From a bacterium (GTDB lineage Bacteria; UBA8248; JACPRG01; G963555815), in the NCBI GenBank assembly GCA_965261595.1, contig CBDHDG010000003.1, forward strand, positions 192,001-256,000: DNA of 64,000 nt, written 5' to 3'. The position numbers were made by a program, and so were the translations under genes. The notes under the pieces are model-generated. The model was not told the DNA's origin, made no database searches, and was given only the letters and a program-made list of their open reading frames with translations. Below are positions 22,851 to 60,385 of this stretch, piece after piece. Each line of letters opens with the position of its first letter. The stretch's first letter is position 1.

Positions 22851-23864
22851 ATGAGGTATCTGTTGAAAGTCGCCGGGTTGTTTGTCGTCTTGTCTTTCCT
22901 GATGACGGGTTCCGCCCCGGCGGCCAAGAAGCTGAACTTCACGATGGACTGGATCATTTACTCGGCGCATACTTTCGCCGTCGCGGCCGATAAGCTGGGA
23001 TACTATAAGGAGGCGGGGCTGAATGTCAGCATTCGCCGCGGGTTTGGCTCGACCGACACCATCAAGAAGGTCGGCGTCGGACAGGCCGATTTCGGAATGG
23101 CGGACACGGGCAGTCTGATCGTAGCGCGGACCAAAGGTGTCAAAGCGAAGGAGCTCGGGGTCCTTTACGCGAGGGCGCCGTACGAGCTTGCTTGTTTGAA
23201 GAAGAGGGGAATCGAGAAACCGAAGGATATCGAAGGGAAGATCATGGGGACCAACATCGGGACCTCCGTCTACACCCTCTTCCCCGCGTTTGCCAGAGCG
23301 TCGGGTGTGGATCAGTCCAAGGTCAAATGGGCCTTTATCCAACCCAGCGCCATCATTCCCAGCCTGGTGGCGGGGAAGATCGATTGCGCCTTCGTGTACG
23401 CGAACAATCGTCCCATCGCCGTCAACAACGTCAGGAAGGCCGGCCAGGGTGAGATCACGGTCCTCGCCTACGCCGATCACGGTGTGGACATCTACGCCAA
23501 CGGTCTCATCACCCAGGATGAGCGCATCGCCAACAATCCCGACCAGGTCCGGAGATTCGTGGAGGCCAGCTTCAAGGGGGTCGCGTGGGTCGTCGAAAAC
23601 CCGAAAAAGGGATTGCAGATCGTTCTGGACCGTTTCCCTTCCCTGAACCGTCAGAACAACCTGGAAGGCTTGAGAGTCAGCTTGGACTTGCTTTTGACGG
23701 ATGAGACCGAAAAATACGGCATCGGCTGGATGTCCCGGGAAAAAGTCAAAAGAACCCGGGACCTTACCACCAAGTACATGAAGCTGAAGACGGTGGTGCC
23801 GATTGATGACATTTACACGATGAAGTTCCTGCCGAAGCTCTTCCCCAAGAGGGGCGAGCTATAA
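22851..23864 (+). CDS. ABC transporter substrate-binding protein, NMT1/THI5-like
   Basis: Signal peptide; NFTMDW, GYYKEAGLNVSIRRGFGS, ADFGMAD, PKDIEGK and DIYANGLIT motifs; RBS GGAGGG. Confidence 0.88.
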   Translation: MRYLLKVAGLFVVLSFLMTGSAPAAKKLNFTMDWIIYSAHTFAVAADKLGYYKEAGLNVSIRRGFGSTDTIKKVGVGQADFGMADTGSLIVARTKGVKAKELGVLYARAPYELACLKKRGIEKPKDIEGKIMGTNIGTSVYTLFPAFARASGVDQSKVKWAFIQPSAIIPSLVAGKIDCAFVYANNRPIAVNNVRKAGQGEITVLAYADHGVDIYANGLITQDERIANNPDQVRRFVEASFKGVAWVVENPKKGLQIVLDRFPSLNRQNNLEGLRVSLDLLLTDETEKYGIGWMSREKVKRTRDLTTKYMKLKTVVPIDDIYTMKFLPKLFPKRGEL

Positions 23865-23904
23865 AGAGACTTCACCTTTCAAGGCTTTGAGATTCGGTTC
23901 GGAG

Positions 23905-23937
23905 TCCGGAGGGCGCGCCGCACGCGCGCCTTCCGGA
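23905..23937 (+). terminator. GC-rich hairpin downstream of the binding-protein gene
   Basis: TCCGGAGGGCGCG-CCGCACG-CGCGCCTTCCGGA; a near-identical hairpin lies at 30479-30509 after the paralog's 3' end; no U tail. Confidence 0.5.
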
Positions 23938-23973
23938 TGAGGAATCTTGATGTCCTCCATCCCGTTCCTCTAA

Positions 23974-24301
23974 CCTCTATTTCTCACAAAGAGAATTTTG
24001 AACCTCGGATGGGCCAGTGAGCTGGTTGCCTTTCAATACATTGCCCGATGCGAGCGAGTTGCTTGGCTGAAACACCCCGTTCTCTGCGCGGGCGTGTGAC
24101 GGGCCGGTACGGGGACCACCGAGGCGGTGGCACCGTCCGGCCCCTGCGACGAAAAACCCTGTTTACCCGTAGGGGCGGGTCCCCGTACCCGCCCGCAAAG
24201 ACGGTCGTTGCGAGTATCCGCTACACTCCGCCGAACAAGGCGGCCGGTGCGATCTCTGCGGCAAGCAGAGCACGAGACCATCGGTTGGTGAGAAATCCAG
24301 G
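23974..24301. mobile_element. 328-bp non-autonomous MITE with IS1380-like ends and internal REP-like hairpins
   Basis: Left end CCTCTATTTCTCACAAA, right end (reverse complement) CCTGGATTTCTCACCAA, flanked by CTAA direct repeats (23970-23973, 24302-24305); no transposase ORF. Confidence 0.7.
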
Positions 24302-24417
24302 CTAATCGTTGACATGGGATTTTGAGCGTGAGTCACCCGGCTCGCGCGAAGGATCTTGCGTTTTGTGGCGCCGAATGCCGGATCAAGCCGGGGGAAGGGC
24401 GGGGGGAGACCCTTGTA

Positions 24418-24449: not shown

Positions 24450-24758
24450 CTTTGATGCGTCATCCGGCCTTCCCTTTCGGACGTTGCTCGCCCGTCGCTC
24501 AGGGTGAAAAGGGCGTCGATTATTTATCGCTTCCCGTAAGACCTTCCGCGGAATGTCGTTGATCCGGTTCAATCCTGTGGTACACTTTTGGTTCGTTTTA
24601 TCCAAGGATAGTGAGTCCCAACAGTTTCAGTAGGGGCATGTGTCTTTGATGCGCATATGCCTTGAAGGAAATCTGCGGATGGCCGGAGATGGTTTTTTGG
24701 AGGGACGCTGAGCCTCTTAAGAGAGGACGCATCCGACACCGTGACCAAGGAGGGAGAA

Positions 24759-24919
24759 ATGAGACATCTGTTGAGAGCGGCCGGTTTGTTCGTTGCTTTG
24801 TCTTTCCTGATGTCGGCCTCCGCCCTGGCGGGCGAGAAGCTGAACTTCACGCTGGACTGGGTCATCAACGCGCCCCACTCGTATTTTATCTCGGCCAAAA
24901 AATTGGGTTATTACAAAAA
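24759..24919 (+). pseudogene. 5' fragment of a second NMT1/THI5-like binding protein, truncated by the IS1595 element
   Basis: MRHLLRAAGLFVALSFLM...KLNFTLDWVINAPHSYFISAKKLGYYK aligns with the N-terminus of 22851..23864 and stops at the inverted repeat. Confidence 0.88.
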
Positions 24920-24963
24920 GGGAATTATATACTTGAATCCCAAAAATGCCGGTAGTGTCTCAG

Positions 24964-25152
24964 TCACATGGGCTCCAATCCTATCGGGACAACGACTTCG
25001 AGTGGGTTCCCGTAGAAGCACTGCTCAAACAATTCTCTCTTCAAGTCCAGTCGGTCAATGAATCCCATCGGCCTGCGAATACACCCACACATGGCGGCCT
25101 CATCAAATAGACGGTCCTCAAGGTACAGGCGGGTTTCATGGTCTGCTGTCAT
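24964..25152 (-). CDS. Small hypothetical protein at the left end of the IS1595 element
   Basis: 62-aa ORF with a good RBS (AAGGAG on the minus strand) upstream of ATG. Confidence 0.45.
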   Translation of the reverse strand: MTADHETRLYLEDRLFDEAAMCGCIRRPMGFIDRLDLKRELFEQCFYGNPLEVVVPIGLEPM

Positions 25153-25194
25153 GGCACTTCTCCTTTTGGGCGCACTGCGCCCGCAAAAAGAGTG

Positions 25195-25223
25195 TTGACA
25201 GCTTCTTGGAAGGAGTCTAAATT
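25195..25223 (+). promoter_or_regulatory. Sigma70-like promoter inside the IS1595 left arm
   Basis: TTGACA-17 bp-TAAATT. Confidence 0.55.
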
Positions 25224-25296
25224 GAAGGATGTTGTGTTTCCTTCAATGAGACTCTCAGCCAATCGGCTGCCTGAAAAGCCTTCTTCCACGGAAGGC

Positions 25297-26739
25297 GAGG
25301 GTGTCCCGAATTCAGTTGAAGGTTTGAGGCGGCGGTCCGTGTGTGGTTCACCTTATGCGACCTCCTCTCGGGTGTCAAAGCGGGGCTCGTCCAGAACGGC
25401 CTTCAGGATCCACAGGTCCCGGTAGCCGTCCAGGCGACGGAAGTTCTTCTCGGTGGCGAGGAAGGCGGAAGCGGCCCACCTTTTCACCATCGCCCCGTCC
25501 CGCCAGCGGCCGACGCGCCGGGTGCGCATCCGCACCCCCGAACAGGGACTCTCGATCAGGTTCGTGCTCACCAGGCAGCGCCGAAGGCCGGGCGGAAGAG
25601 CCAAGCGGTTGACGGTGAAGATCTCCTCCAGACCCTCCAAAAGGCTGGCGGCCGCGTCCGGATGCTCGATCTGAAGCCACCGGGCCTGCTTGCGCAGACG
25701 GGCAATCCCCTCCTTCGGCGCCAGCCGCCAGGCCGCCTTCATCGTCGCCTTCACCGGATCCTTCAACTCCTCGGGCAGGTGGTCCATCACGTTCTTCACC
25801 TTGTGGTTGCGGCACCGCTGCACCGGATTGTCGTCCCCGTACACCCGGTCAATCGCCGCACGAAGCGCCCTCGAGCCGTCGATGACAAAAAGCCGACGCC
25901 GCCCGGGCCGCACGCCGCGCTCCACCAACTCCTCAAGAAGCGCCGTCACGACCGTGGCGTTCTCGGTGGCGCCCGACCTCAGGCCCAGAACGTGCTTTTG
26001 GCCCCGTGTGTCCACCCCAACGGCCACGATGACGTGATGCGCGCCGAAGCGCAGACCGTCCAGGTAGAGGATGAGGAGGTCGATGTCGTCAAAACGCCGC
26101 TCACAAAGACGCCGCAGCTTCGCCTCGGCCGCCTCGATGCTCTCCCGGCTCACGGCCGACTTCGACACCCCCACCGTCTCGGCCAGCTCGGGAAGAACGG
26201 CCGCGTAGTTCCGCGTCGAGACCCCTCGCATCAGCAAATCCAGCATCCGCTCCCCCAGCCCGGGGTCGGCCTGCATGGCCGCATACGCCGGCACCTCCAC
26301 CTCCCCGCCCCGACCCTGGCCCCGGCGGCGAAGCCGCGGCTTTCTCACCTTCAGCTTGCGCCCCTTCAGGGTCACCCGGCCCCCCTGGCTGCCGTGCCGG
26401 CGGACCTCGCCACCCCGCTTGCCTGGATGCGGCGCGCCCGTCAAGCCCTTGGCCGACAGCAAAAGCACGGCCTCCAGGCCCGCCCGGCCCATGACGTCCA
26501 TCAGGTCCTCCACCGCCAGTTGGGACTGCTCCACCAGCGACACCAGAGGAAAAAACGCCTGCCCGTGCTCCGCCACAAAGGCGGCCAACCTTTGGGTCTC
26601 TTTCTTCTCGATGATCTGGTAAGCTTCACTCATGGCGGTTCCTCCTCTTTGAATGTTTGCCAACCCGATTCTAACCGAGTCGGCAGGAGTGAACCGCCAC
26701 CTCTTTTTCTCAACCTTCAACTATGAATGGGACAGGCTC
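25297..26739 (-). mobile_element. IS256-family insertion sequence nested in the IS1595 element
   Basis: Imperfect IRs GAGGGTGTCCCGAATTCAGTTGAAGG / GAGCCTGTCCCATTCATAGTTGAAGG; 8-bp target duplication CGGAAGGC (25289-25296, 26740-26747). Confidence 0.93.
25353..26633 (-). CDS. IS256 family transposase
   Basis: GVSTRNY, VSKSAVSR, LYLDG, FVIDGSRAL, QRCRNHK and STNLIES (DDE) motifs. Confidence 0.95.
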   Translation of the reverse strand: MSEAYQIIEKKETQRLAAFVAEHGQAFFPLVSLVEQSQLAVEDLMDVMGRAGLEAVLLLSAKGLTGAPHPGKRGGEVRRHGSQGGRVTLKGRKLKVRKPRLRRRGQGRGGEVEVPAYAAMQADPGLGERMLDLLMRGVSTRNYAAVLPELAETVGVSKSAVSRESIEAAEAKLRRLCERRFDDIDLLILYLDGLRFGAHHVIVAVGVDTRGQKHVLGLRSGATENATVVTALLEELVERGVRPGRRRLFVIDGSRALRAAIDRVYGDDNPVQRCRNHKVKNVMDHLPEELKDPVKATMKAAWRLAPKEGIARLRKQARWLQIEHPDAAASLLEGLEEIFTVNRLALPPGLRRCLVSTNLIESPCSGVRMRTRRVGRWRDGAMVKRWAASAFLATEKNFRRLDGYRDLWILKAVLDEPRFDTREEVA

Positions 26740-46746: not shown

Positions 46747-47515
46747 GAGGAAGACCCCCCCGTCGGAGATCCCGAAAAGGGCGGTTTTGCGCCGCCCCCT
46801 CCTTTTCCATTGAAGACCTGTCAGGGTCTTGAGCGCCCCTCCCCCCCTCCTTCCCCGGAGGAGGCCGCGGGATGCAATCTCCCCTGAATTGATTATCAAA
46901 TCTTGTCTGGCGGCCGCCTTTCGCTTCCATAAAAAAGCGTACGCAAAGTCCTGGCCCCATCCTCTGGTGCGGTTTTTGCACTTGTCACTAATGTGGTTTA
47001 CGAAGGCGAGGGTCGCACAGTCTGGCCAAACGGCGCAAAATTTACGTGAATCATGGATTACGAAAGCAAAATCACCGAGCATTTGGATGTCATCGAGCGT
47101 TGCTCGATATTAACCAACGGGCGGCGGGCTTTGCTGGCGGGCCTTCCGGACGCCCGGTATCCCTACGTTTATCCCCGGGACGTTTGGGCCGCCGTCCGAT
47201 TGCTCAGTGAGGTGGCGCTCAGCGATTTGCTCTTATCGGACCGGGCTTTCACCTTGTTGCGTGAAGTCGTGGCCTTCATCGCGTACGTCCAACGCGAGGA
47301 TGGGCACTGGGGACAGCGCTATGAGGTCTCCGGCGAGGATAAGTCCATCTATCGTCAGGAGGACAACGTGGCCTACGCCGGCTCCGCGTTGGCGACCTAT
47401 CTGCTCACCGCAAACGCACTCGGCCGGGAAGTCCCCAACTGGGAGGACCTCCCCCGCTCTAGGGTTTTGTTGGACACTCGATTGATCCATGATTCATGGA
47501 GAAAGGGGTGTCGCG

Positions 47516-47902
47516 ATGAACGAACAAAAGCAAGAGGGGGCTTTGGCGGAGGGCGCCCGCAGGGCGAACGGAGCCAAGGCCCCAGGGCATCGCAGTGAGC
47601 GGGGTCGGTTCTCCTGCCAGCGCAAGCGGGAGGCGGTCCTGCGTCTTTTGCGGGGCGAGAGCCTGGAGACGCTCTGCCGCGAGTTGGGCACGACAGCGGC
47701 TCGGCTTTCCGCCTGGCGCGAGGCGTTCCTTCGCGGGGGCGAGGCGGCGCTCAAAGCCCGCCCGGCGGATGAGCGGGACGAGGAGAACGCCCGGCTCAAG
47801 GCCAAGGTGGGCGAACTCACGATGGAGGGCGAGGTCCTGCGGGAGAAGATCGACCGCCTGGAGGCCGGCCGCCCTTTAGCCGGCAGGAGGTGGAGGCGAT
47901 GA
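47516..47902 (+). CDS. IS3-family transposase OrfA (HTH)
   Basis: KREAVLRLLRGESLETLCRELG...LSAWREAF...LKAKVGELTME. Confidence 0.88.
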   Translation: MNEQKQEGALAEGARRANGAKAPGHRSERGRFSCQRKREAVLRLLRGESLETLCRELGTTAARLSAWREAFLRGGEAALKARPADERDEENARLKAKVGELTMEGEVLREKIDRLEAGRPLAGRRWRR

Positions 47903-48807
47903 GTCAGGCCCGCTTCACCTCCACGGGCAGAGCCTACGGCCTGAAGCGGGTGTGCGCCCTTTGGGGCTTGGCGCGCTCCACGGTCTACGCGCAACGGCGG
48001 CGAGAGGCGGTCCCCGTTCATGAACGCCCCACGCCCAATAAGCGCGGCCCTGTGGGCCCGTGCACCGATGCGGAACTCCTCGGCCACATCCGGCAGGTCC
48101 TGGAGGACTCTCCCTTCCATGGCGAGGGCTACCGCAAGGTGTGGGCGAGGCTGCGCTTCGCGGGCATCCGCACCAGCAAGGAGCGGGTGCGTCGCCTGAT
48201 GCGGGAGGCGGGGCTTCAGGCCCCCCACCGGGTGGGCAAACCCCGAGGTCCCAAGGCCCACAACGGGACCATCCGCACCGAGCGGCCCGACCGAATGTGG
48301 GGCACGGACATGACGACGACGGTGACCACCGAGGAGGGGATGGCCTCGGTGTTCGTGGCGGTGGATCACTGCTCGGTGGACTGCGTGGGGATCCATGCGG
48401 CCAAGAGCGGCAACCGCTTCGAGGCCCTGGAGCCGATCCGGCAGGGGGTCGCCGAGCGCTTCGCCGGCTTGGAGGCGGATGTCGCCGAGGGGCTTAAAGT
48501 TCGTCACGACCACGGCCCCGCCTATCTGTCCGATGACTTTCAGCGGGAGATCGCCTACCTGGGCATGACCAGTTCGCCCAGCTTCGTGCGGGCGCCCGAG
48601 GGAAATGGCTACTGTGAGTGGTTTATCCGCATCTTGAAGGAGAATCTCCTGTGGGTGCGCTCTTTCGCCACCGTAGAGGAACTGCGGTGGGCGCTGCTTG
48701 AGTTCAAGAACCTGTATAACCATCATTGGATTCTCGAGGGCTACGGCTACCGAACGCCGGCCCAGGCAAGGCAGGAAAAACTCGCTCAAGTTGCGGAGGC
48801 CGCATGA
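47899..48807 (+). CDS. IS3-family transposase OrfB (integrase core)
   Basis: GYRKVWARL, WGTD, VRHDHGPAY and EGNG..E.F...LKE motifs; ATGA overlap with OrfA. Confidence 0.9.
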   Translation: MSQARFTSTGRAYGLKRVCALWGLARSTVYAQRRREAVPVHERPTPNKRGPVGPCTDAELLGHIRQVLEDSPFHGEGYRKVWARLRFAGIRTSKERVRRLMREAGLQAPHRVGKPRGPKAHNGTIRTERPDRMWGTDMTTTVTTEEGMASVFVAVDHCSVDCVGIHAAKSGNRFEALEPIRQGVAERFAGLEADVAEGLKVRHDHGPAYLSDDFQREIAYLGMTSSPSFVRAPEGNGYCEWFIRILKENLLWVRSFATVEELRWALLEFKNLYNHHWILEGYGYRTPAQARQEKLAQVAEAA

Positions 48808-49620
48808 GGTCGAATACCCTCACCCGAGTGTCCAATAACCCAGGGGCGGTCCAGTTCCTTGAAAGCAGCTTGTGGTCGCCGGAATTCGGTTTGTTGCAGC
48901 GTTACCTTCCCTTTAACGAATACATGAGTATGCACGCCCACGCCGGCAACGGCCCCTGGTTTCAGTACACCGGCATCCTGGCCCAGTATTACTATTTCAT
49001 GGGCAACCGGGATCGGGGAGATGAAATCCTCAGCATCATGGACCAATACCGGTCTGAAGACGGCTATCTGCCCGAGCACGTCAGCTCCTGCGAGCGGTTT
49101 TGGGAGTTCATCCGGACGGAATGGGAGACCGGGAATGACGCCCGCAAGGAGTTCGATCCGGAAATCCTTTTGCCGAACCTGTCGTACGATCTCATCGTCG
49201 AGGAATTGGTCAACATGAAGAAATCGTACGATGGCATCCGCGGGTATTGCACCCTCCAGAGAGGCGGGTCGTCTTTCATCCGTTTCTCCACCCCGTTGAT
49301 GTGGTCGCACGCCGAATACGCCATGGCCCTCCTCGTCCGCCGCAAGGCGGGATACCCGGCGATGATTTCCGTCTCGTGAGCCGCTGAAGAGCGGGATCGG
49401 GTCCTCCAAGATCACAGCGAATGGGTGGGACTTTTTCCAACGTGCTCGTACAGGGCGGGAGGAGAGGTTTGTCCCCGTTCGGCGATTTTGGGATGGGTGG
49501 GACAGCGCCGGAAGTTTCGCCGGGCCTCTCCGGAAACGATTTCAGGCTCGGAAATGTCGATTGCGCGAAGACCCGTTTATCGGCCGCCGGGGGGGTGTGG
49601 TAAAGGACGCGACGCGCCGA

Positions 49621-51411: not shown

Positions 51412-53079
51412 CCCGCATTTCCCATATGGATCATAAGTTTTGTCGGACCGAATGCCATTTTCTCGTGTAAGATCAAGGTGTTGGCCTCTCCCTGCCATCA
51501 TCTTGCGAGGGGACCCAATGGGTGAAGCGAAGAAGGGGGCTTTGAAGATCCGTTTTGACCGTCGGCTGAGGCTTGAGTTTCACGGAACCAGAATCACTTC
51601 GGATGCAGGATTGCTGGCCTGCCGGGAGCTGGATGATGCGCTGGGTTTGACGGTGAGAGCGCCAGTGCAATTGCAAGAGATCCGTCATGGCCGGAACATC
51701 CAGCATGAGTTGGCGCCGCTATTGCGCCAGTCGGTCTATAGCCGCTTGGCAGGGTATGAAGACACCAACGATGCCGAGCGGTTGGCCCAGGACCCCGCGA
51801 TGCAAGCCGTGGTCGGCCGCCGAGCGCTTGAGAAGCAGGCGGCGGGCGCCAACACCCTGAGCCGGTTCGAGACCGAGGTTCTCACCAAGGAGGAGAATCT
51901 CAAGGGGCCGGAGCGAGCTGAACCGGGAGTGGGTGGACCGGGCCATGGCACACTCACCCCATCAGCGAATCATCCTGGACATGGACAGCTCGGAAAGCCC
52001 CGTCCATGGGGAGCAGGAAGGTACGGCCTACAACGGCCACTTTCGTTGCACCTGTTATCACCCTCTTTTTTGCTTTAACCAGTTCGGGGACTGCGAAGGG
52101 GCGATGTTGCGCCCCGGCAACGTGCACAGCGCCGATGGCTGGCGCGAGTTGCTTTCGCCCATCGCGGCCCGGTATGAGCGGGCGGGTGTTCGCCGTTACT
52201 TCCGAGCCGATGCCGCCTTTGCGCGCCCGGAGGTCTATGAGTGCCTGGAAGCGCACAGCTTCCTTTACGCCATCCGCCTTCCCGCCAACGACGTGGTGCA
52301 GCGAGAGATCGACTTCCTCCTCACCCGCCCGGTCGGTCGCCCGCCCAAGAGACCCATCATCTTCTATTACGACTTCCGGTATCAGGCTGGAAGCTGGGAC
52401 CGTTCCCGGCGGGTCGTGGCGAAGGTGGAATGGCACTCAGGCGAACTCTTCCCTCGCGTCGGATTCATTGTCACGAACCTGACGGCTCGACCCGAGGGGG
52501 TCGTGCACTTCTACAACCAGCGAGGCACAGCCGAGCAATGGATCAAGGAAGGCAAGTACGCCATGAACTGGACACGCCTTTCCTGTCACCGGTTCGTGTG
52601 CAACCAGGTGCGGCTCCTTCTCTTCGTCCTGGCGTACAACCTGGGCAATTTCCTGCGCAGGCTAGCCTTGCCCAGGGGGCTCAAGCACTGGTCGCTGCGA
52701 AGCCTCCAGGTCAAGCTCATCAAAATGGGCGGGAGGATTGTGCGGCACGCCCGGCAGATCATCTTTCAATTGGCCGAAGTAGCGGTATCCAGGGAAGAGT
52801 TCGCCATCATCCTGGACCGAATCAACCGATTACGGCCGGTGCCGGTCTAACCTTGTGCAGAGGGTTCCCGGCAGCATGAGGTGATTGGTTAACGGGTTGA
52901 ACCGCGAATAAAGGGGACCGAAGGGCGAGGGTCCGCCTTTTGGGGCAGTCGATGGCCGTCAGCACCTTGTTGCGGAGGGTTGGAAGGCTCTTGACAAACC
53001 CATCGGAAGGGGATCAACTGGTTTTCATCGGGAAAGGGGACCGGAAACCACCCAAGCAAGTTGATATGGGAAATTCCGG
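51412..53079 (+). mobile_element. IS1380-family insertion sequence
   Basis: 16-bp imperfect IRs CCCGCATTTCCCATAT / CCGGAATTTCCCATAT; 5-bp target duplication TTATA (51407-51411, 53080-53084). Confidence 0.9.
51518..52850 (+). pseudogene. IS1380 transposase, frameshifted near 51910
   Basis: MGEAKKG...ITSDAGLL...GYEDTNDA in one frame; ELNREWVDR...LDMDSS...YHPL...RADAAF...YNQRGTAEQWIKEGK in the next. Confidence 0.85.
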
Positions 53080-53154: not shown

Positions 53155-54249
53155 ATGAAAACGGAATACTCAGCGGTCATGGAGGGCAAGGAGCGGATGA
53201 GCCTCCGGGAGTTCCCGTTGCCCGAAATCGGCGAGGACGACGGCCTCATGCGGGTGGAGATGTCGGGGGTGTGCGGGTCGGATTACGCTTGGTTTCATGA
53301 AAAGGTGAAGCTCCCGGAGTACCCCGTCATCCTGGGCCATGAGATCCTGGGCCGCCTCGAGAAGCTCGGCAAAAAGGTGGCGGACCGTCTCGGGCTGGCC
53401 GAGGGGGACCGGGTCGTGGTCGAGTCCCGCATCGGCTGCGATGGGTGCAGATACTGCAAGGCGGGACACTATGTCTTTTGCGAAAAAGAGCTCGGCTACG
53501 GCACGACGGTCTCTTGCGCCCGGCCCCCGCACCTTTGGGGGGCTTACGGGGAGTGCCTGTACATTGCCCCGGGGACCCGGGTGCACAAGATTGCCGAGTC
53601 CGTTCCGGCCGAGGCCGCCGTCTTGACGTGCGGCGTCCTGGCCAACGGGATCCGGTGGGTCCATCAAAAGGGCGGCGTCGGGATTGGGGACGTGGTGATT
53701 GTCGAGGGCGTCGGCCAGCAGGGGCTGGCGGCGATCATCGCCTCCAAGGAGGCCGGCGCCCACCTGGTCATCGCGACGGGCGTCTCAGGGGACGAGAAAC
53801 GCTTTGCGCTGGCCCGCGAGTTCGGGGCGGACCACACCATCGACATCGAGGCGCCCGGCGCGGTCGAGCGCATTCTGGACTTGACCGAGGGTTTGGGCGC
53901 GGACGTCGTCGTCGACGCGACATCGAGCCCCGCCGCCTTGGAGACCGCCATCGACCTGGTGCGCAAGCGGGGAACCGTCATCAGCGCCGGCCTCAAGGGG
54001 ACGCTGGTCCGGACGCCCATCAACGTGGACAAGGTCGCCCTCAACGAGATTCGGATTCAAGGGGTGTTCACCCACGACGCGGAATCGGTGGTCCCGACCA
54101 TCAGACTGCTGGAGTCCGGGAAGTATCCGGTGGAGAAGATGGTGACCCACCGGTTCAAATTGTCCGAGGCCGAAAAGGCCGTTCAGTGCGTCGGGCGGCA
54201 GCTGGAAGGGGAGGACCCCATCAAGGTCGTCATCCTGCCGGAGGTGTAG
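53155..54249 (+). CDS. Zinc-dependent alcohol dehydrogenase (MDR family)
   Basis: GVCGSD, GHE, CDGCRYC..G..VFC and GVGQQG motifs. Confidence 0.93.
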   Translation: MKTEYSAVMEGKERMSLREFPLPEIGEDDGLMRVEMSGVCGSDYAWFHEKVKLPEYPVILGHEILGRLEKLGKKVADRLGLAEGDRVVVESRIGCDGCRYCKAGHYVFCEKELGYGTTVSCARPPHLWGAYGECLYIAPGTRVHKIAESVPAEAAVLTCGVLANGIRWVHQKGGVGIGDVVIVEGVGQQGLAAIIASKEAGAHLVIATGVSGDEKRFALAREFGADHTIDIEAPGAVERILDLTEGLGADVVVDATSSPAALETAIDLVRKRGTVISAGLKGTLVRTPINVDKVALNEIRIQGVFTHDAESVVPTIRLLESGKYPVEKMVTHRFKLSEAEKAVQCVGRQLEGEDPIKVVILPEV

Positions 54250-54496
54250 CGGGAGGCGGGCAAGACGCCCGTTCTCACAAGGGGCGGCGCTGGCGGCTTC
54301 TCTGCCGGCGCCGCATTTTTAAAATGAAGCGCGCGTCCATTATTCCTGAGGCTGGTCCCCGTCCCGGCCCGTCACACGCCCATAGGGAACAGAATGCTGG
54401 AACTTGGTCAGCACCCGTGCGTTGGTAAATTATTGAACGCTAACCGGTTCAATCGACCTACACCGTTCGGTCGTTTAAGTTGCTGAGAAATGCGGC

Positions 54497-55846
54497 CTAG
54501 GGTCTCCCTGGTGCAAAATCCTCCAGTGTTCTCAGATCCGGAAGCGACAACGGCTCCTTATACAAATGTTGCTCTTGCCAGAGACCGCTCTCTCGGATCC
54601 TGGTTTTTGGCGAAAAGCTGCCCAACCAGCCTGGAGAGGGACAGCAAGAGCGACAGAGGGAAACAGTCGCAATGCCGCGCCGCTCGAATTCAAGGCAAAC
54701 CTCGCGATTTGGGACGGCGATGGTGCAAAACGAGAGATTCCGTGTGATATGTTCCGATACAGAATTTTCGACCTGCCCCTGTCTTTCCTTGTCGACAAAC
54801 GTCCCATAGCGCTCACGGTTTTTCCGTGAGGTGAGATCGAAGTCCCACGTTTTGAGGAATGGGTCGCCGTCCCTGTTGAGGAGCGCACGTACCAGGTTTT
54901 TGCGAAAGATACTACGATCCTTGTTCGGCGTTACGTGCTCCTTGAGACGTGCCCTCAGGTTGCCATCGCCAGTGTGACTGCCGATCCGCACGATACGCTC
55001 ACCAACATGGCCCGGTTCGGCGGCCTCAAACAGAAAATAGAGGCCATTGTCCGGAATCCCGTAATCAGGCGGTGAAAAACTGTGTTGTTTGAGCCGGTGC
55101 AAGATCTCGTGGAGGCGTGAGCATAACTCTTCTCTTTCAACCAATTGGCGCTGCGACGGATGGAGAAAGCTCCACGGGTTTTCAAACGCCCGCTCTAGCT
55201 CTTCCACGTTGCTCATCACGCGAAAGCGGCGCTTTGCATCGGGCTGATCAAACGGGTCGGTGTTTGCCGCTACCAGTGGCAGAACAGGTGGCGCCACACC
55301 GGTCGCCAGGTTCAACAGCGCCTCGGCGGCCTCGTCGGGCAGGTGAGCGGCCAGTTCCAGAATGGAGTCTTCGTTGGCCTTCCGCACATCTGCCAGCCAC
55401 TCGACAGGCAGCCCGCAGTCGAGCAGTTCATCATCCGACAGATGTTCATAGAGGGGTGGCTTGGGGAGATCGGGCTGTTCGACTTCCACGTACTTCGGGA
55501 CGGGGATTTCCTGGACCCGCTCGCGAATTTCCACCAACTGCGCCGCGCCGGTTTTCGGATGGGTTTCCAGCTTGCGCTGCTCAGCCCAGTCATAGGCCCG
55601 GTCGTGGTGATCCACATAGCACAGGAGTAGGCTCGTTTTGGTCTTGTGCACGATGATCCGCAGGTCGCGGCTGACTCGCACCGAACAGAAGTTTTTGTCC
55701 TTGGCCCTGTCGAGCTTGTGGAATTTCTTGCCCGGGGTGTCGCGCTTTATCTGAAGGTCGAAGGCTGTGGTCTTGACGGCTTTTTGCTCGTCGCCGGTCA
55801 ATCTCGTGAGGCTGTCAGTAAAGGTGTCGGCGATACGAAAGTCCAT
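54497..55846 (-). CDS. Chimeric protein: RelE-like N-terminal region of UvrD-type helicases fused to a GIY-YIG-like nuclease domain
   Basis: MDFRIADTFTDSL...KTTAFDLQ...FHKLDRAKDKNF.SVRVSRDLRIIVH...YVDHHD.AY.WA...FLHPSQRQLVER, then GLYFLFE...IVRIGSH...NLRARLKEH...SIFRKN; no Walker A motif. Confidence 0.7.
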   Translation of the reverse strand: MDFRIADTFTDSLTRLTGDEQKAVKTTAFDLQIKRDTPGKKFHKLDRAKDKNFCSVRVSRDLRIIVHKTKTSLLLCYVDHHDRAYDWAEQRKLETHPKTGAAQLVEIRERVQEIPVPKYVEVEQPDLPKPPLYEHLSDDELLDCGLPVEWLADVRKANEDSILELAAHLPDEAAEALLNLATGVAPPVLPLVAANTDPFDQPDAKRRFRVMSNVEELERAFENPWSFLHPSQRQLVEREELCSRLHEILHRLKQHSFSPPDYGIPDNGLYFLFEAAEPGHVGERIVRIGSHTGDGNLRARLKEHVTPNKDRSIFRKNLVRALLNRDGDPFLKTWDFDLTSRKNRERYGTFVDKERQGQVENSVSEHITRNLSFCTIAVPNREVCLEFERRGIATVSLCRSCCPSPGWLGSFSPKTRIRESGLWQEQHLYKEPLSLPDLRTLEDFAPGRP

Positions 55847-56460
55847 TACTTGTGGGGCCAAAAGTAATGCACCGGTGCCAGCCAATATTGCGATGGATCC
55901 CGTTCGCTCTCGTGGCGGATAGAGCTGAGATCATTCACCCACCTTTTTTCGAACCCCTCTCGTGCAGCGACCGCCGAGATGATGGCATCTCGCTCGTGTT
56001 CCTGTTTGTTCTTCATCTCTACCTTTACTGAGAACTGCTTGAAAAAAGTATCGCCTCTCTTCAATTTCAACGCGGCCATTACAGCTTTGGGATGAGTCTC
56101 CGTGACGCCGACATCCGGAAAGAGTCGTCGAATCCGGTCCACGAACATCATGCCTTGGACGAGTGCCGCGCCACGCAATGAGTTCACCGCTTACACCTGT
56201 CCACCGGAAAAACCGTACTCCCCTCTTAACCACTGATCCGCCATACGGGCGCTGGAACGCCCAGACGACCACCACAAAGGGGCATCCACTCCAATACCGG
56301 CAGGTTGCGCTTTCACGAGGTTCGTGACTTTATCGACGGCCTCATCCGCACAGTCCACACAACACGTCTGCGCCGACCCGTCCGATTTGAGAATAGCCAA
56401 TCCAAAACTCCCCTTGCCGCCCGGATCCGCACCGATCCAGATGTTGTTGCGCGACCTCAT
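55846..56460 (-). pseudogene. DUF429-like (RNase H-like) predicted nuclease with an internal TAA stop
   Basis: WIGADPGG, GVDAPLWW, R.AD..LR, then GGQV*AVNSLRGA in the same frame (stop 56191-56193), TETHPK, HERDAIISA. Confidence 0.75.
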
Positions 56461-56732
56461 ACCTTGAACACCTCGAACCTCTGTCAAATCGATAGTTCAT
56501 CATTGAGAAAAGCCCTTGCGCAGGCGTAGTGCCAGTTTGTGTGCACGGGCTTGTAACGAACCGTTCGCCAGCCAGTTTGTACGGGCGCCTCAGATGACGC
56601 GTAGAAGACAATCTTTTCGGCAGGAAGCTGCTTGGTTAGTCGGTAAAACAACGGGAGATAGTCCTTTCCCCCGCTCTAGGGTTTTGTTGGACACTCGATT
56701 GATCCATGATTCATGGAGAAAGGGGTGTCGCG

Positions 56733-57119
56733 ATGAACGAACAAAAGCAAGAGGGGGCTTTGGCGGAGGGCGCCCGCAGGGCGAACGGAGCCAAGGCCCC
56801 AGGGCATCGCAGTGAGCGGGGTCGGTTCTCCTGCCAGCGCAAGCGGGAGGCGGTCCTGCGTCTTTTGCGGGGCGAGAGCCTGGAGACGCTCTGCCGCGAG
56901 TTGGGCACGACAGCGGCTCGGCTTTCCGCCTGGCGCGAGGCGTTCCTTCGCGGGGGCGAGGCGGCGCTCAAAGCCCGCCCGGCGGATGAGCGGGACGAGG
57001 AGAACGCCCGGCTCAAGGCCAAGGTGGGCGAACTCACGATGGAGGGCGAGGTCCTGCGGGAGAAGATCGACCGCCTGGAGGCCGGCCGCCCTTTAGCCGG
57101 CAGGAGGTGGAGGCGATGA
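56733..57119 (+). CDS. IS3-family transposase OrfA
   Basis: Same protein sequence as 47516..47902. Confidence 0.88.
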   Translation: MNEQKQEGALAEGARRANGAKAPGHRSERGRFSCQRKREAVLRLLRGESLETLCRELGTTAARLSAWREAFLRGGEAALKARPADERDEENARLKAKVGELTMEGEVLREKIDRLEAGRPLAGRRWRR

Positions 57120-58024
57120 GTCAGGCCCGCTTCACCTCCACGGGCAGAGCCTACGGCCTGAAGCGGGTGTGCGCCCTTTGGGGCTTGGCGCGCTCCACGG
57201 TCTACGCGCAACGGCGGCGAGAGGCGGTCCCCGTTCATGAACGCCCCACGCCCAATAAGCGCGGCCCTGTGGGCCCGTGCACCGATGCGGAACTCCTCGG
57301 CCACATCCGGCAGGTCCTGGAGGACTCTCCCTTCCATGGCGAGGGCTACCGCAAGGTGTGGGCGAGGCTGCGCTTCGCGGGCATCCGCACCAGCAAGGAG
57401 CGGGTGCGTCGCCTGATGCGGGAGGCGGGGCTTCAGGCCCCCCACCGGGTGGGCAAACCCCGAGGTCCCAAGGCCCACAACGGGACCATCCGCACCGAGC
57501 GGCCCGACCGAATGTGGGGCACGGACATGACGACGACGGTGACCACCGAGGAGGGGATGGCCTCGGTGTTCGTGGCGGTGGATCACTGTTCGGTGGACTG
57601 CGTGGGGATCCATGCGGCCAAGAGCGGCAACCGCTTCGAGGCCCTGGAGCCGATCCGGCAGGGGGTCGCCGAGCGCTTCGCCGGCTTGGAGGCGGACGTC
57701 GCCGAGAGGCTTAAAGTTCGTCACGACCACGGCCCCGCCTATCTGTCCGATGACTTTCAGCGGGAGATCGCCTACCTGGGCATGACCAGTTCGCCCAGCT
57801 TCGTGCGGGCGCCCGAGGGAAATGGCTACTGTGAGTGGTTTATCCGCATCTTGAAGGAGAATCTCCTGTGGGTGCGCTCTTTCGCCACCGTAGAGGAACT
57901 GCGGTGGGCGCTGCTTGAGTTCAAGAACCTGTACAACCATCATTGGATTCTCGAGGGCTACGGCTACCGAACGCCGGCCCAGGCAAGGCAGGAAAAACTC
58001 GCTCAAGTTGCGGAGGCCGCATGA
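57116..58024 (+). CDS. IS3-family transposase OrfB
   Basis: Same as copy 1 except G>R in DVAE(G/R)LKV. Confidence 0.9.
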   Translation: MSQARFTSTGRAYGLKRVCALWGLARSTVYAQRRREAVPVHERPTPNKRGPVGPCTDAELLGHIRQVLEDSPFHGEGYRKVWARLRFAGIRTSKERVRRLMREAGLQAPHRVGKPRGPKAHNGTIRTERPDRMWGTDMTTTVTTEEGMASVFVAVDHCSVDCVGIHAAKSGNRFEALEPIRQGVAERFAGLEADVAERLKVRHDHGPAYLSDDFQREIAYLGMTSSPSFVRAPEGNGYCEWFIRILKENLLWVRSFATVEELRWALLEFKNLYNHHWILEGYGYRTPAQARQEKLAQVAEAA

Positions 58025-58685
58025 GGTCGAATACCCTCACCCGAGTGTCCAATAACCCAGGGGCGGTCCACCTTGCCACCAAAAAAGTAGATCGGCCCCT
58101 CATCATCAGGGCTCAAATGGCAGAAATCCTCATACGGATCGCCTTTCCCGCGGCGCTTATAGGCATCGGCATTACCAGAAAAGGTGATGTCATAGATGGG
58201 AAGGGGGTAGTTGGCACGTACGAGCCCCCAGCCTGCAGACAAAATGAGAACATTTTCAAGACCAAACTTGGAGACCAGTTCCCGATAGATCGGAGGTCTG
58301 TAGAGTCGGTAAGCTTCGAGCAGTTTGAAAGGGTTGTCGTGTCGGGTGTCATCATAATTATCGAGTTGCTCGCGCCACGACGTGCCCGGTCGGTCTGAAG
58401 GAGCATCGTCATCGGGGTGCGCCCATTCCCAGTCGCTACTTGCAGGGGTTTTTTCGGGGTGCGCGACAAACTTCACGCGCTTGCCAGCCTTCGTCTGGAA
58501 AAAGCCCGCTGAGGGCACCTTCGACCCAGCGCACTGAATCACAACTTTCATGATCGATTATCTCACAAATTCAGGGACAGAAGTTCTGCAACGGATTTAC
58601 CCGACAACTACTTTTTCGGTTAGTATACAAGGCGGGGAAATGGTGAGATCAAAAACTTCCTTGCAAACTCCGGCTTAAGACGCGG

Positions 58686-58746
58686 TGGGCCACTCTTGGT
58701 TTCTTGGACATTCGGGCGAGGGTAATCGACCTCATGCGGCCTCCGC
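58686..58746 (-). mobile_element. Diverged relic of the right end of the same IS3-type element, inverted
   Basis: TGGGCCACTCTTGGTTTCTTGGACATTCGGGCGAGGGTAATCGACCTCATGCGGCCTCCGC aligns with the reverse complement of 58010-58070. Confidence 0.75.
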
Positions 58747-58987
58747 GCTGCACAGGCTGACAAGCTGCCGGTGGCATCCATATTTAAAGACTCCCAGTTT
58801 AAAGAGGCGTCCAATATCCCCGAAGCTTTGTCAGCGAATGGATTCATCGGAACGGCGGTGCGCGTCCGCTCCAATGGATGTGTAACGGGGGGGATTGCGC
58901 TTGAGCAAGCCAGGGTTTAAAAAGGTGCGCTCGTTTCTCCCTTTCTGTTGACGTTCAATCAGGCTTGAATCACAAAAGGATTCGAAC

Positions 58988-60385
58988 ATGAAGGATTTGA
59001 GAACCTTCATCGAGGACATGGAAGAGCGCCACCCGGGTGAGATCCTGCGGGTCCAGCGCCCGGTGGACGCCCGGTTCGAGATCTCTTCCGTTATCAGACG
59101 CCTGCAGGAGGAGCGGAAATTCCCGGCGGTCTTCTTTGAAAGCGTCCGGGGAAGCGACCACGGGGTGATCACAAACGTTCACGCCACCCGGGAACGGATG
59201 GTGTACGGCATGGGCGTTTCGGATCGCAAGGCGATGCTCCGCGCCTGGAGCGAGCGGCTCGATAACCCCATCGCGCCGATCGACGTGGAGACCGGACCCG
59301 TCAAGGAGGTGATTCACTTGGGCGAGGCGTGCGACCTCCGGCGGCTCCCCATCGTGACCCACGCCGAGCAGGATTCGGGCGCTTTCATCACCGCCGGCGT
59401 CCTGATCATCCGGAATCCCGACACGGGCGAGCCGAACATCGGAATCTATCGCCACATGGTGAAGGGGCCGAACCGTCTGGGCTGCTTTATGAATGAGGGC
59501 ACGCACCTGTTCCATCTCCTGAAGAAGGCCGAGGCGAAGGGACAGGATCTGGAGTGCGTCATCTTCATCGGCCACCATCCCCTGGGCATCCTGGCCTCCC
59601 AGGTCCGGGGGGCGCTCCAGAACGAGCTGGCCACGATGGGCGGGGTCCTGGGAGAGGCGATCGAGATCGCCCCGGCCGAGACGGTGGACGTGCCCGTGCC
59701 GGCCCGGGCGGAGATCGCCATCGAGGGCAAGATCCTCGCGGGCGTCCGGGAGGAGGAGGGGCCCTTCGGCGAGTACACCTTCTTATATGGGGAAGCCCGG
59801 AATTCCCCGGTCATCGAGGTGTCGGCCATCACGCACCGCCGCGACGCCATCTTCTACGACGTGCACTCCCCGTATATCGACCATGTGAACTGCTCCGTCC
59901 TGGCGCAGGACGCTTATGTGTTCAATAAGATTCGGGCCTCGGTGCATAACATCCTGGACGTGTTTCACCCCTCGGAGGGCATCGTCCATACGGCGATGAT
60001 CCAGATCCGCAAAGAGACGGAAGGGCAGGGCAAGGCGGCGGGTCTGGCCGCGCTGGCCTCGGTGTACCTGCTCAAGATCGCCATCATTGTGGATGACGAC
60101 GTGGATCCGACCAATCTCGGGGAGGTCCTTTGGGCCATCACGGCCAGGACCCGGCCGGATCGGGACTTCGACTTCATCAAGGACGTGCATTGCGGCACGC
60201 TGGACGCCATGGGCGTTTCGGGAGAGGGTTGGCCGCAAAGGGGCGGCCTCAACACCAAGGTGATCATCGACGCGACGAAGCCCATCGATGTCCCGCTGCC
60301 CGACCGCTGCGACCCGCCCGAGGCGATGTGGCGCGCGATGGACCTCGCCGAGTATTTCCCGGACGGGAATTTCGGGTCGGGCTGA
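58988..60385 (+). CDS. UbiD family (prFMN-dependent) decarboxylase
   Basis: DLRTFI, NIGIYR, EIAIEG, EEGPFGEYT, IIVDDDVDP..L.EVLWA and KVIIDATKP motifs. Confidence 0.92.
   Translation: MKDLRTFIEDMEERHPGEILRVQRPVDARFEISSVIRRLQEERKFPAVFFESVRGSDHGVITNVHATRERMVYGMGVSDRKAMLRAWSERLDNPIAPIDVETGPVKEVIHLGEACDLRRLPIVTHAEQDSGAFITAGVLIIRNPDTGEPNIGIYRHMVKGPNRLGCFMNEGTHLFHLLKKAEAKGQDLECVIFIGHHPLGILASQVRGALQNELATMGGVLGEAIEIAPAETVDVPVPARAEIAIEGKILAGVREEEGPFGEYTFLYGEARNSPVIEVSAITHRRDAIFYDVHSPYIDHVNCSVLAQDAYVFNKIRASVHNILDVFHPSEGIVHTAMIQIRKETEGQGKAAGLAALASVYLLKIAIIVDDDVDPTNLGEVLWAITARTRPDRDFDFIKDVHCGTLDAMGVSGEGWPQRGGLNTKVIIDATKPIDVPLPDRCDPPEAMWRAMDLAEYFPDGNFGSG

Follow-up and report, generated by a model that had tools for sequence, protein, structure and literature searches.

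How should three tightly packed genes be read when they look like one operon of nucleases, two of them are broken and the third is made of two unlike halves? This question is raised by genes 1, 2 and 3 at 54497-58551 of a bacterial DNA stretch of 64,000 nucleotides (assembly GCA_965261595.1, contig CBDHDG010000003.1, positions 192,001 to 256,000; the whole stretch is hereafter referred to as the window). An earlier note on this DNA had proposed that they form an undescribed three-gene defence operon. The answer that we consider probable is that the islet holding these genes is an acquired, decaying, lineage-specific mosaic of two unrelated two-gene modules and not one three-gene system. Judged by their sequences the genes are more than chance open reading frames (ORFs), since each ORF has strong homologues elsewhere, and they are laid out as follows.

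58071-58551, minus strand: gene 1, 5' part (codons 1-160), long-form DUF6884/PDC-M57A-like, starting MKVVIQCAGSK

56484-56666, minus strand: gene 1, 3' part (last 59 codons and stop, TGA at 56484), colinear with the C-termini of the homologues in relatives

55846-56460, minus strand: gene 2, DUF429 RNase H-like nuclease pseudogene, ATG at 56460, in-frame TAA at 56191-56193

55115-55846, minus strand: gene 3 residues 1-244, 5' fragment of a RelE-like/UvrD-helicase gene, ending after LHPSQRQLVER, just before Walker A

55562-55846, minus strand: gene 3 residues ~1-95, RelE fold (Foldseek)

54497-55114, minus strand: gene 3 residues 245-449 and stop, PDC-M57B (PF26468) GIY-YIG-like nuclease without its first ~5 residues

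The islet measures ~4.7 kb (about 54250-58987) and lies between two catabolic genes. All three genes are on the minus strand, and their guanine-cytosine (GC) content is 0.53-0.59, compared with 0.60-0.70 in the flanks. The shared orientation, spacing and lower GC content that the earlier note reported thus hold at the coordinates it gave.

By the homology of its two halves, gene 3 is what remains of a helicase gene after truncation, fused in frame to M57B, and its domain architecture is not a designed one. The gene begins with the ATG of a TAATG overlap at 55846 and keeps an intact frame of 449 residues. When the whole protein was used as a query, 8000 matches were returned, and among the best 120, which were inspected, only P0002 (99% identical, from the same lineage) covers both halves. 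The remaining 119 reach a query coverage of 51-52%, and most are proteins of ~690 residues with UvrD-helicase domains, several of whose sources label them RelE-like. The N-terminal part of gene 3 is 60-86% identical to the N-termini of such helicases and to N-terminal fragments. One helicase, P0003, is 85% identical to gene 3 up to FLHPSQRQLVER and then continues with GSAGTGKT (Walker A), which is absent from gene 3. In P0003 the Pfam UvrD-helicase domain begins at residue 233, and the break comes ~12 residues further on and not at a domain border. No UvrD Pfam domain was found in gene 3, and a tblastn search of the whole genome with all five gene pieces found neither paralogues nor the remainder of the helicase.

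The second half of gene 3 is matched by the PDC-M57B model PDLC04713 of PADLOC over residues 253-456 (E 2.9e-72, 240.7 bits, profile positions 3-207 of 211), and the match was confirmed at the genome level (E 5.9e-72). Searched alone, this part has 333 homologues, and those listed are mostly stand-alone proteins of 196-240 residues with PF26468. The homology begins at EELCSRLH, which corresponds to about codon 5 of the stand-alone proteins. The two halves also match separate ORFs in a set of 41 related genomes, residues 1-240 matching ORFs of 689-710 residues (G005 and G030) and residues ~245-440 matching ORFs of 241-245 residues (G017, G020, G033 and G036). One M57B homologue, P0156, is fused C-terminally to a MazG-like nucleotide pyrophosphohydrolase domain and is not paired with DUF6884.

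A junction of this kind could in principle be a misjoin of helicase and M57B genes during assembly, as the genome is repeat-rich, with 177 copies of one insertion sequence (IS). We give this explanation negligible weight. Seven alleles of the same fusion, at least 97% identical, occur in several assemblies, and single contigs from three runs of three studies (X1, X5 and X6) span 54389-56662, including the fusion junction, with 0-5 differences (at 54891, 55075, 55234, 55235 and 55244 only). An assembly artefact is ruled out by these alleles together with the junction-spanning contigs.

The earlier description of gene 3 as a RelE-like/GIY-YIG chimera stands as far as the presence of both folds is concerned and falls as far as it implied a designed architecture, as what is joined to M57B is the stump of a helicase. 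The model of residues 1-244 has a predicted local distance difference test score (pLDDT) of 75, rising to about 90 over residues 1-100, and residues 1-95 match YoeB, RelE and YafQ (12 PDB chains at E<=1e-3; Foldseek probability 1.0, E 2e-4). The model of the M57B domain has a pLDDT of 93.2. Foldseek retrieved no match to it in the PDB at E<=1e-3. In an exhaustive VIA-align comparison with 48,161 chains, GIY-YIG nucleases take five of the six best rows with Z of 5.1-6.6; as these values are moderate, the argument for the fold rests on the consistency of the family. The predicted structure thus indicates that M57B has a GIY-YIG core. The residues Y25, R39, R42, H46, R55, E115 and E143, invariant in the family, are present in the window, and the Tyr, Arg and Glu among them may occupy the canonical GIY-YIG catalytic positions.

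The RelE/YoeB/YafQ fold of residues 1-95 and the stop/start overlap with gene 2 would also suit a toxin-antitoxin-like pair, with the RelE-like domain as an mRNA-cleaving toxin and gene 2 as its antidote. This seems highly improbable. Outside this locus, the RelE-like domain almost always forms the start of a ~690-residue helicase, and the Pfam HigB-like model scores gene 3 at 19.4 bits, below its cut-off of 27. Gene 2 is RNase H-like with conserved acidic catalytic residues and does not have an antitoxin fold; moreover, it is broken in three strains in which gene 3 is intact, with no sign of lethality.

The first of the two modules pairs M57B with DUF6884, a DNA-binding protein of YaaA-like type whose pocket bears CxxxK and LSAxxG. 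The earlier note could not match the genes to a named system, and this part of its proposal does not hold, since PADLOC has a candidate, PDC-M57, that matches the C-terminal half of gene 3 and probably gene 1 as well. The name is a PADLOC model label, found neither in the main text of the preprint by Payne et al. nor in the literature searched. The identity of PDC-M57A with DUF6884 follows from a natural fusion, P0184, whose N-terminal part matches both PDLC04712 (1.6e-53) and PF21818 (1.3e-42) and whose C-terminal part matches PDLC04713 (3e-90).

Gene 1 carries the two motifs given for DUF6884 in PMC11701544, CxxxK (CAGSK, residues 7-11) and LSAxxG (LSAGWG), and both are kept in its six homologues. 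These homologues, intact proteins of 217 residues in six relatives, are 44-48% identical to the 5' part of gene 1. A profile built from them matches the M57A-B (DUF6884-GIY-YIG) fusion proteins with an hhalign probability of 88% and an E of 3e-6. Neither piece of gene 1 matches Pfam DUF6884 (PF21818) at E<=0.1, and the intact homologue of a relative scores 25.4 bits, below the cut-off of 30. Against PDB sequences the long-DUF6884 profile gave nothing meaningful; the best match was a ribosomal protein (E 0.009), and YaaA was not retrieved. On the two motifs and the profile match, we keep for gene 1 the label DUF6884-like of the earlier note.

The linkage of the two genes is conserved in most of the sampled loci. 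In all six relatives carrying M57B, the gene 1 homologue follows the M57B-type gene with overlapping stop and start. Hidden Markov models (HMMs) found DUF6884 adjacent or fused in 15 of 15 M57B loci, of which six are in relatives, eight on viral contigs and one on a genome contig; some loci of this census are seeds of the HMM. A scan of genome contigs with the M57B domain alone yielded only one short contig, L014. The same holds for 10 of 14 further places in genomes of another phylum; the four places without it are the weakest M57B matches, with flanks of only 1.5 kb. Taken together, 25 of the 29 other loci have DUF6884 next to M57B or fused with it, and by HMM neither DUF429 nor the helicase N-terminus occurs at any of the 29. 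The distribution of M57B is patchy (8 of 51 genomes of its own phylum, 13 of 401 of another).

Six relatives carry the M57 pair at one syntenic site behind a PduO-like gene (loci L024-L029, e.g. L025:7165-9302). In four of them the pair is followed by a second copy of part of the 3' end of the PduO-like gene, and across the six the pair is 74-94% identical, compared with 87-100% for the flanking genes. The site looks like a cassette insertion that regenerates the end of its target gene.

As to function, we tentatively favour type IV-like, modification-dependent restriction, in which DUF6884 would read an unusual or modified base in incoming DNA and its GIY-YIG partner would cut. This reading is suggested by the YaaA-like nature of DUF6884, with weak DpdC-like similarity around LSAGWG, by the patchy and mobile occurrence of the M57 pair, and by the restriction-type GIY-YIG enzymes among the fold matches. 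Alternatively, the pair could act in the repair of DNA lesions, with DUF6884 finding abasic sites or ribonucleotides and a UvrC/Slx1-like nuclease incising. YfjM, a DUF6884 member, is reported in PMC11701544 among the interactors of abasic and RNA-base lesions and as resembling YaaA; the GIY-YIG domain of UvrC is among the best fold matches (Z 6.1), and the pair sits amid housekeeping genes in the six relatives. We regard repair as unlikely all the same. Restriction-type Eco29kI, T4 EndoII and PD-T4-3 match the fold as well as UvrC does, and a repair function fits poorly with the patchy distribution, the presence on eight viral contigs, the cassette-like insertion with its duplicated 3' end in four of six relatives and the faster evolution of the pair relative to its flanks. 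PADLOC, furthermore, picked PDC-M57 for its embedding in defence systems; PDC systems are defined by embedding in BREX, DISARM, type I restriction-modification and Hma systems (Payne et al. preprint).

The second module joins DUF429 to the RelE-like/UvrD helicase. Read through its stop codon with X, gene 2 scores 26.3 bits with Pfam DUF429 (PF04250), above the cut-off of 23, in line with the earlier assignment. It aligns end to end with proteins of ~205 residues, and its homologues fall into 664 representative clusters at E<=1e-3. DUF429 is RNase H-like (PMC3985635) and keeps the acidic residues of such a nuclease; across 24 sequences, D12, D59, E121, H123 and D158 show little or no variation. 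No PADLOC family matches DUF429.

When metagenomes were scanned with the DUF429 alignment, 80 loci were obtained, 69 of them with at least 150 bp downstream. The helicase N-terminus follows within 30 bp in 41 of the 69 and at 0.6-1.1 kb in three, and it is missing in 25; at least five of the 41 (L035, L044, L053, L066 and L070) hold just the first 18-52 helicase codons at that spot. The HMMs detect the helicase N-terminus in 44 of the 80 loci, M57B in none and DUF6884 in one, L030, which is a near-identical relative of the islet. The ORF directly upstream of DUF429 is a ~930-residue N6_N4 methylase in 21 of the 60 upstream ORFs scanned, often with overlapping stop and start. In L049 this methylase matches PADLOC MTase_III (E=0) and a ~1020-residue Res-like gene stands before it. 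A four-gene operon of Res (~1020 residues), Mod (~935), DUF429 (204) and helicase (~690) is common in metagenomes (loci L031, L049 and L078; e.g. L049:2116-10726). Given the DUF429-helicase pairing and the type III genes upstream, the native context of gene 2 and of the N-terminal half of gene 3 is the Res-Mod-DUF429-helicase operon.

We found no Res, Mod or helicase motor in the window or elsewhere in the genome, and no name for this arrangement. Between sources labelled as belonging to different phyla, the helicase keeps 60-86% identity. The module may be a nuclease-helicase accessory to type III restriction, and the pair of DUF429 and RelE-like/UvrD helicase emerges as a by-product of this work, a widespread and highly conserved extension of type III restriction-modification operons.

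The boundary between DUF429 and helicase is also where foreign genes are found, with RhuM/PDC-S05, an AAA_16 ATPase, DUF6946, DUF4238 and a NucS_C-like gene as cargo in five loci.

L053:4188-5470, L070:922-2424, L061:8551-9351, L065:1484-2629 and L044:3839-4726: cargo loci between DUF429 and helicase

L053 and L070 carry the first 41-51 helicase codons twice, with one copy on each side of the cargo. The junction looks like a recurrent embedding site for foreign genes.

Two of the three genes in the window are inactivated, as the earlier note had recognised. Gene 1 is split by a mobile element.

56667-58070, plus strand: IS3-family element, 1404 bp, splitting gene 1, bounded by BLAST against the other genome copies

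56706-57119, plus strand: orfA of the element, HTH_Tnp_1 (1.2e-9)

57107-58024, plus strand: orfB of the element, HTH_21 (3e-11), rve and rve_3, overlapping orfA at 57107-57119

The element is assigned to the IS3 family because its two overlapping ORFs carry HTH_Tnp_1 and HTH_21/rve, and its boundaries were set by BLAST of 56640-58100 against the whole genome (198 high-scoring segment pairs (HSPs), 177 of at least 1380 bp). It is flanked by a 4-bp target duplication, the direct repeat AAGG at 56663-56666 and 58071-58074. The 5' frame of gene 1 enters the element at 58070 and stops at 58003. When 56667-58074 is deleted, as the earlier note had suggested, a gene of 660 nt (219 codons and stop) is restored that is colinear with the intact homologues of the six relatives. 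The empty site itself is seen in L030 as GGCAAGGACTATCTC, with a single AAGG, and the 3' part of gene 1 is 98% identical to that locus; it is also seen in contigs of runs X5 and X6 (two other studies), in which 56662 is joined directly to 58071. The genome (6.17 Mb in seven contigs) holds 177 full-length copies of the element, at ~99% identity or more and on every contig; the copies in the window are at 47450-48853 and 56667-58070.

The TAA in gene 2 replaces a codon that is Q in most of 23 aligned homologues and CAA in L030 (97.7% identical DNA), which bears out the change of TAA to CAA proposed in the earlier note. This TAA is common to X1, X5 and X6, and among these runs the element in gene 1 occurs only in X1, the likely source run of the window; the IS insertion therefore came after the nonsense mutation. 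Decay has reached gene 3 as well. Three of its seven alleles are truncated, at 433 residues (a frameshift near the end), 329 residues (without the first 121) and 258 residues (a stop after residue 256), and four substitutions are private to the window copy, one of which, G319V, replaces a Gly shared by at least 90% of M57B homologues. L030 has a gene 1 truncated at its 5' side, and there a multi-copy repeat interrupts gene 3 after ~14 nt. The locus in this genome is most likely non-functional, and in strains free of the element only the M57 pair (an intact gene 1 and the chimeric nuclease) could still work.

The edges of the islet bear on how it came to its present place, and the features there are the following.

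53155-54249: alcohol-dehydrogenase-type (ADH) gene, islet flank

54350-54491: dispersed repeat, ~140 bp, at the downstream islet edge just past gene 3, with 18 other HSPs in the genome at 71-97% identity

58684-58746: remnant of an IS3-type end, 63 bp, at the upstream islet edge, inverted relative to the element in gene 1

58988-60385: UbiD-type gene, islet flank

In two relatives from the same family, the orthologues of the flanking genes are direct neighbours, at 2174629-2176017 and 2176199-2177290 in G006 (a gap of ~181 bp) and at 23311-24402 and 24515-25903 in G004 (a gap of ~112 bp). As the two genes are contiguous there and 4.7 kb apart in the window, the islet is an insertion and was acquired horizontally, as had been supposed. 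The remnant at 58684-58746 is ~85% identical to the ends of IS copies (190 HSPs) and forms an inverted repeat with 58010-58072 (86%). Excess contig depth was observed over the dispersed repeat, and in one low-depth X1 contig position 54490 is joined to the IS boundary 58071 in opposite orientation. A promoter and terminator scan gave no signal above the shuffled expectation and none on the minus strand, and metatranscriptome run X19 contributed a single contig of 244 nt (depth 2.2, 55180-55423), insufficient to claim transcription.

Two side observations concern the surroundings of the islet. At 51440-52850, ~1.5 kb from it, are two overlapping plus-strand ORFs (212 and 305 residues) that are transposase-like by reading of their products. 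The UbiD-type decarboxylase at the flank belongs to an unusually large family expansion, with 32-57 matches per genome in G001, G003, G004 and G006.

A path to the mosaic can be proposed in three steps. An M57 cassette would first have been embedded within a helicase gene belonging to a type III-associated operon; deletion and rearrangement would then have produced the in-frame join, with loss of Res, Mod and the helicase motor; and the remnant would have been carried to its present site with the help of mobile elements. A circular-permutation origin (B-A-DUF429-helicase 5' end) that would place gene 1 upstream of DUF429 was considered and dropped as untestable with these data.

A competitor to the mosaic is a true hybrid system of three genes, in which the RelE-like module would act as sensor or regulator of the GIY-YIG nuclease, with DUF6884 and DUF429 in the same operon and only recent decay. 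The tight, operon-like spacing, the in-frame fusion of 449 residues with all M57B invariant residues and four full-length alleles, the strains with an IS-free gene 1 and the relative with an intact gene 2 can all be cited in its favour. We nevertheless find it distinctly unlikely. The trio is confined to this lineage, occurring in one of 80 DUF429 loci (the near-identical relative) and none of 29 M57B loci, so that the undescribed three-gene operon of the earlier note does not emerge as a unit. Likewise, no other protein among the best 120 of 8000 matches covers both halves of gene 3, and gene 3 breaks within the motor domain of the helicase rather than at its border. An intact set of the three genes was found in none of the sampled genomes; the TAA persists in X5 and X6, and both gene 1 and gene 3 are damaged in L030. 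A broader version, which we consider a long shot, would have the 244-residue RelE-like module as a portable sensor or regulator transplanted onto a GIY-YIG effector, DUF6884 and the chimeric nuclease as a hybrid defence variant in IS-free strains, and the DUF429/helicase junction as a general docking site for swapped-in defence cassettes.

Several points nonetheless weigh against the mosaic reading and should be set beside it. The spacing is operon-like, with 23 bp between the stop of gene 1 and the ATG of gene 2 and the TAATG overlap of genes 2 and 3 at 55846. Four of the seven gene 3 alleles, in several assemblies, are full length at 449 residues, and all 23 invariant M57B residues are kept in the window copy, which makes some selection possible. 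The PADLOC M57A model matches neither the pieces of gene 1 (E<=1) nor anything in the whole genome, and its match to the intact gene 1 homologue is weak (E 7e-6). In the relatives, long-form DUF6884 pairs with M57B of the PDLC04714 type; the window has it beside a B of the PDLC04713 type, and the A-B pairing in the window may therefore be secondary. Simple embedding alone explains neither this combination nor the position of gene 1 upstream of DUF429. The M57B sample is limited to 29 places, mostly with short flanks. Finally, the 145 PDCs, PDC-M57 among them, are predictions and are called untested in the preprint by Payne et al.

The mosaic reading has consequences for further work on these families. 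As the candidate new immune system fails, the effort of cloning a pseudogene patchwork and challenging it with phages is spared. What the locus does offer is a further independent case of DUF6884/GIY-YIG linkage, here with long-form DUF6884, which strengthens the case for testing an intact pair, as well as a natural illustration that chimeric genes can arise when defence cassettes are embedded in restriction operons.

It is also important to consider how the islet compares with known systems. For gene 1, kinship of DUF6884 with YaaA is stated in PMC11701544, where YfjM is treated with it. A weak PADLOC match to DpdC, of the Dpd 7-deazaguanine DNA modification system, falls around LSAGWG (E 1.6e-4 for gene 1, 4.5e-6 for the intact homologue); it spans only 30-40 residues, and no other dpd genes lie near gene 1 in the window. 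The N-terminal domain of gene 3 (residues 1-95) shares the fold of the type II toxins RelE, YoeB and YafQ, with a template modelling (TM) score of 0.70-0.75 on the target over 83-87 columns, and differs from them in being part of a larger protein, in lacking an antitoxin gene and in having a DUF429 nuclease gene upstream. The M57B domain is closest to T4 EndoII (Z 6.6), the UvrC N-terminal domain (6.1), I-TevI (5.6), R.Eco29kI (5.6) and PD-T4-3 (5.1; PDB 9u75), the last of which is a restriction enzyme specific for 5-hydroxymethylcytosine. These alignments cover 85-101 residues at 2.7-3.0 A with Z below the level that VIA-align itself regards as safe, and M57B differs in an identity of only 12-19% and in ~100 extra residues around the core.

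At the level of whole systems, the islet shares with PDC-M57 (A = DUF6884, B = the GIY-YIG-like PF26468) the M57B match, the DUF6884 motifs of gene 1 and an A-B linkage that is kept elsewhere, including in fusions. It departs from PDC-M57 in that its A is a 219-residue long form that the M57A model does not recognise and is split by the IS, the DUF429 pseudogene separates A from B, and B carries 244 foreign N-terminal residues. Relative to the type III Res-Mod-DUF429-helicase operon, the window is without Res, Mod and the whole helicase motor, and its DUF429 has a stop codon; what it shares with the last two genes of that operon is an identity of 48-96% in gene 2 and of 55-85% in gene 3 residues 1-244, together with the same overlapping junction.

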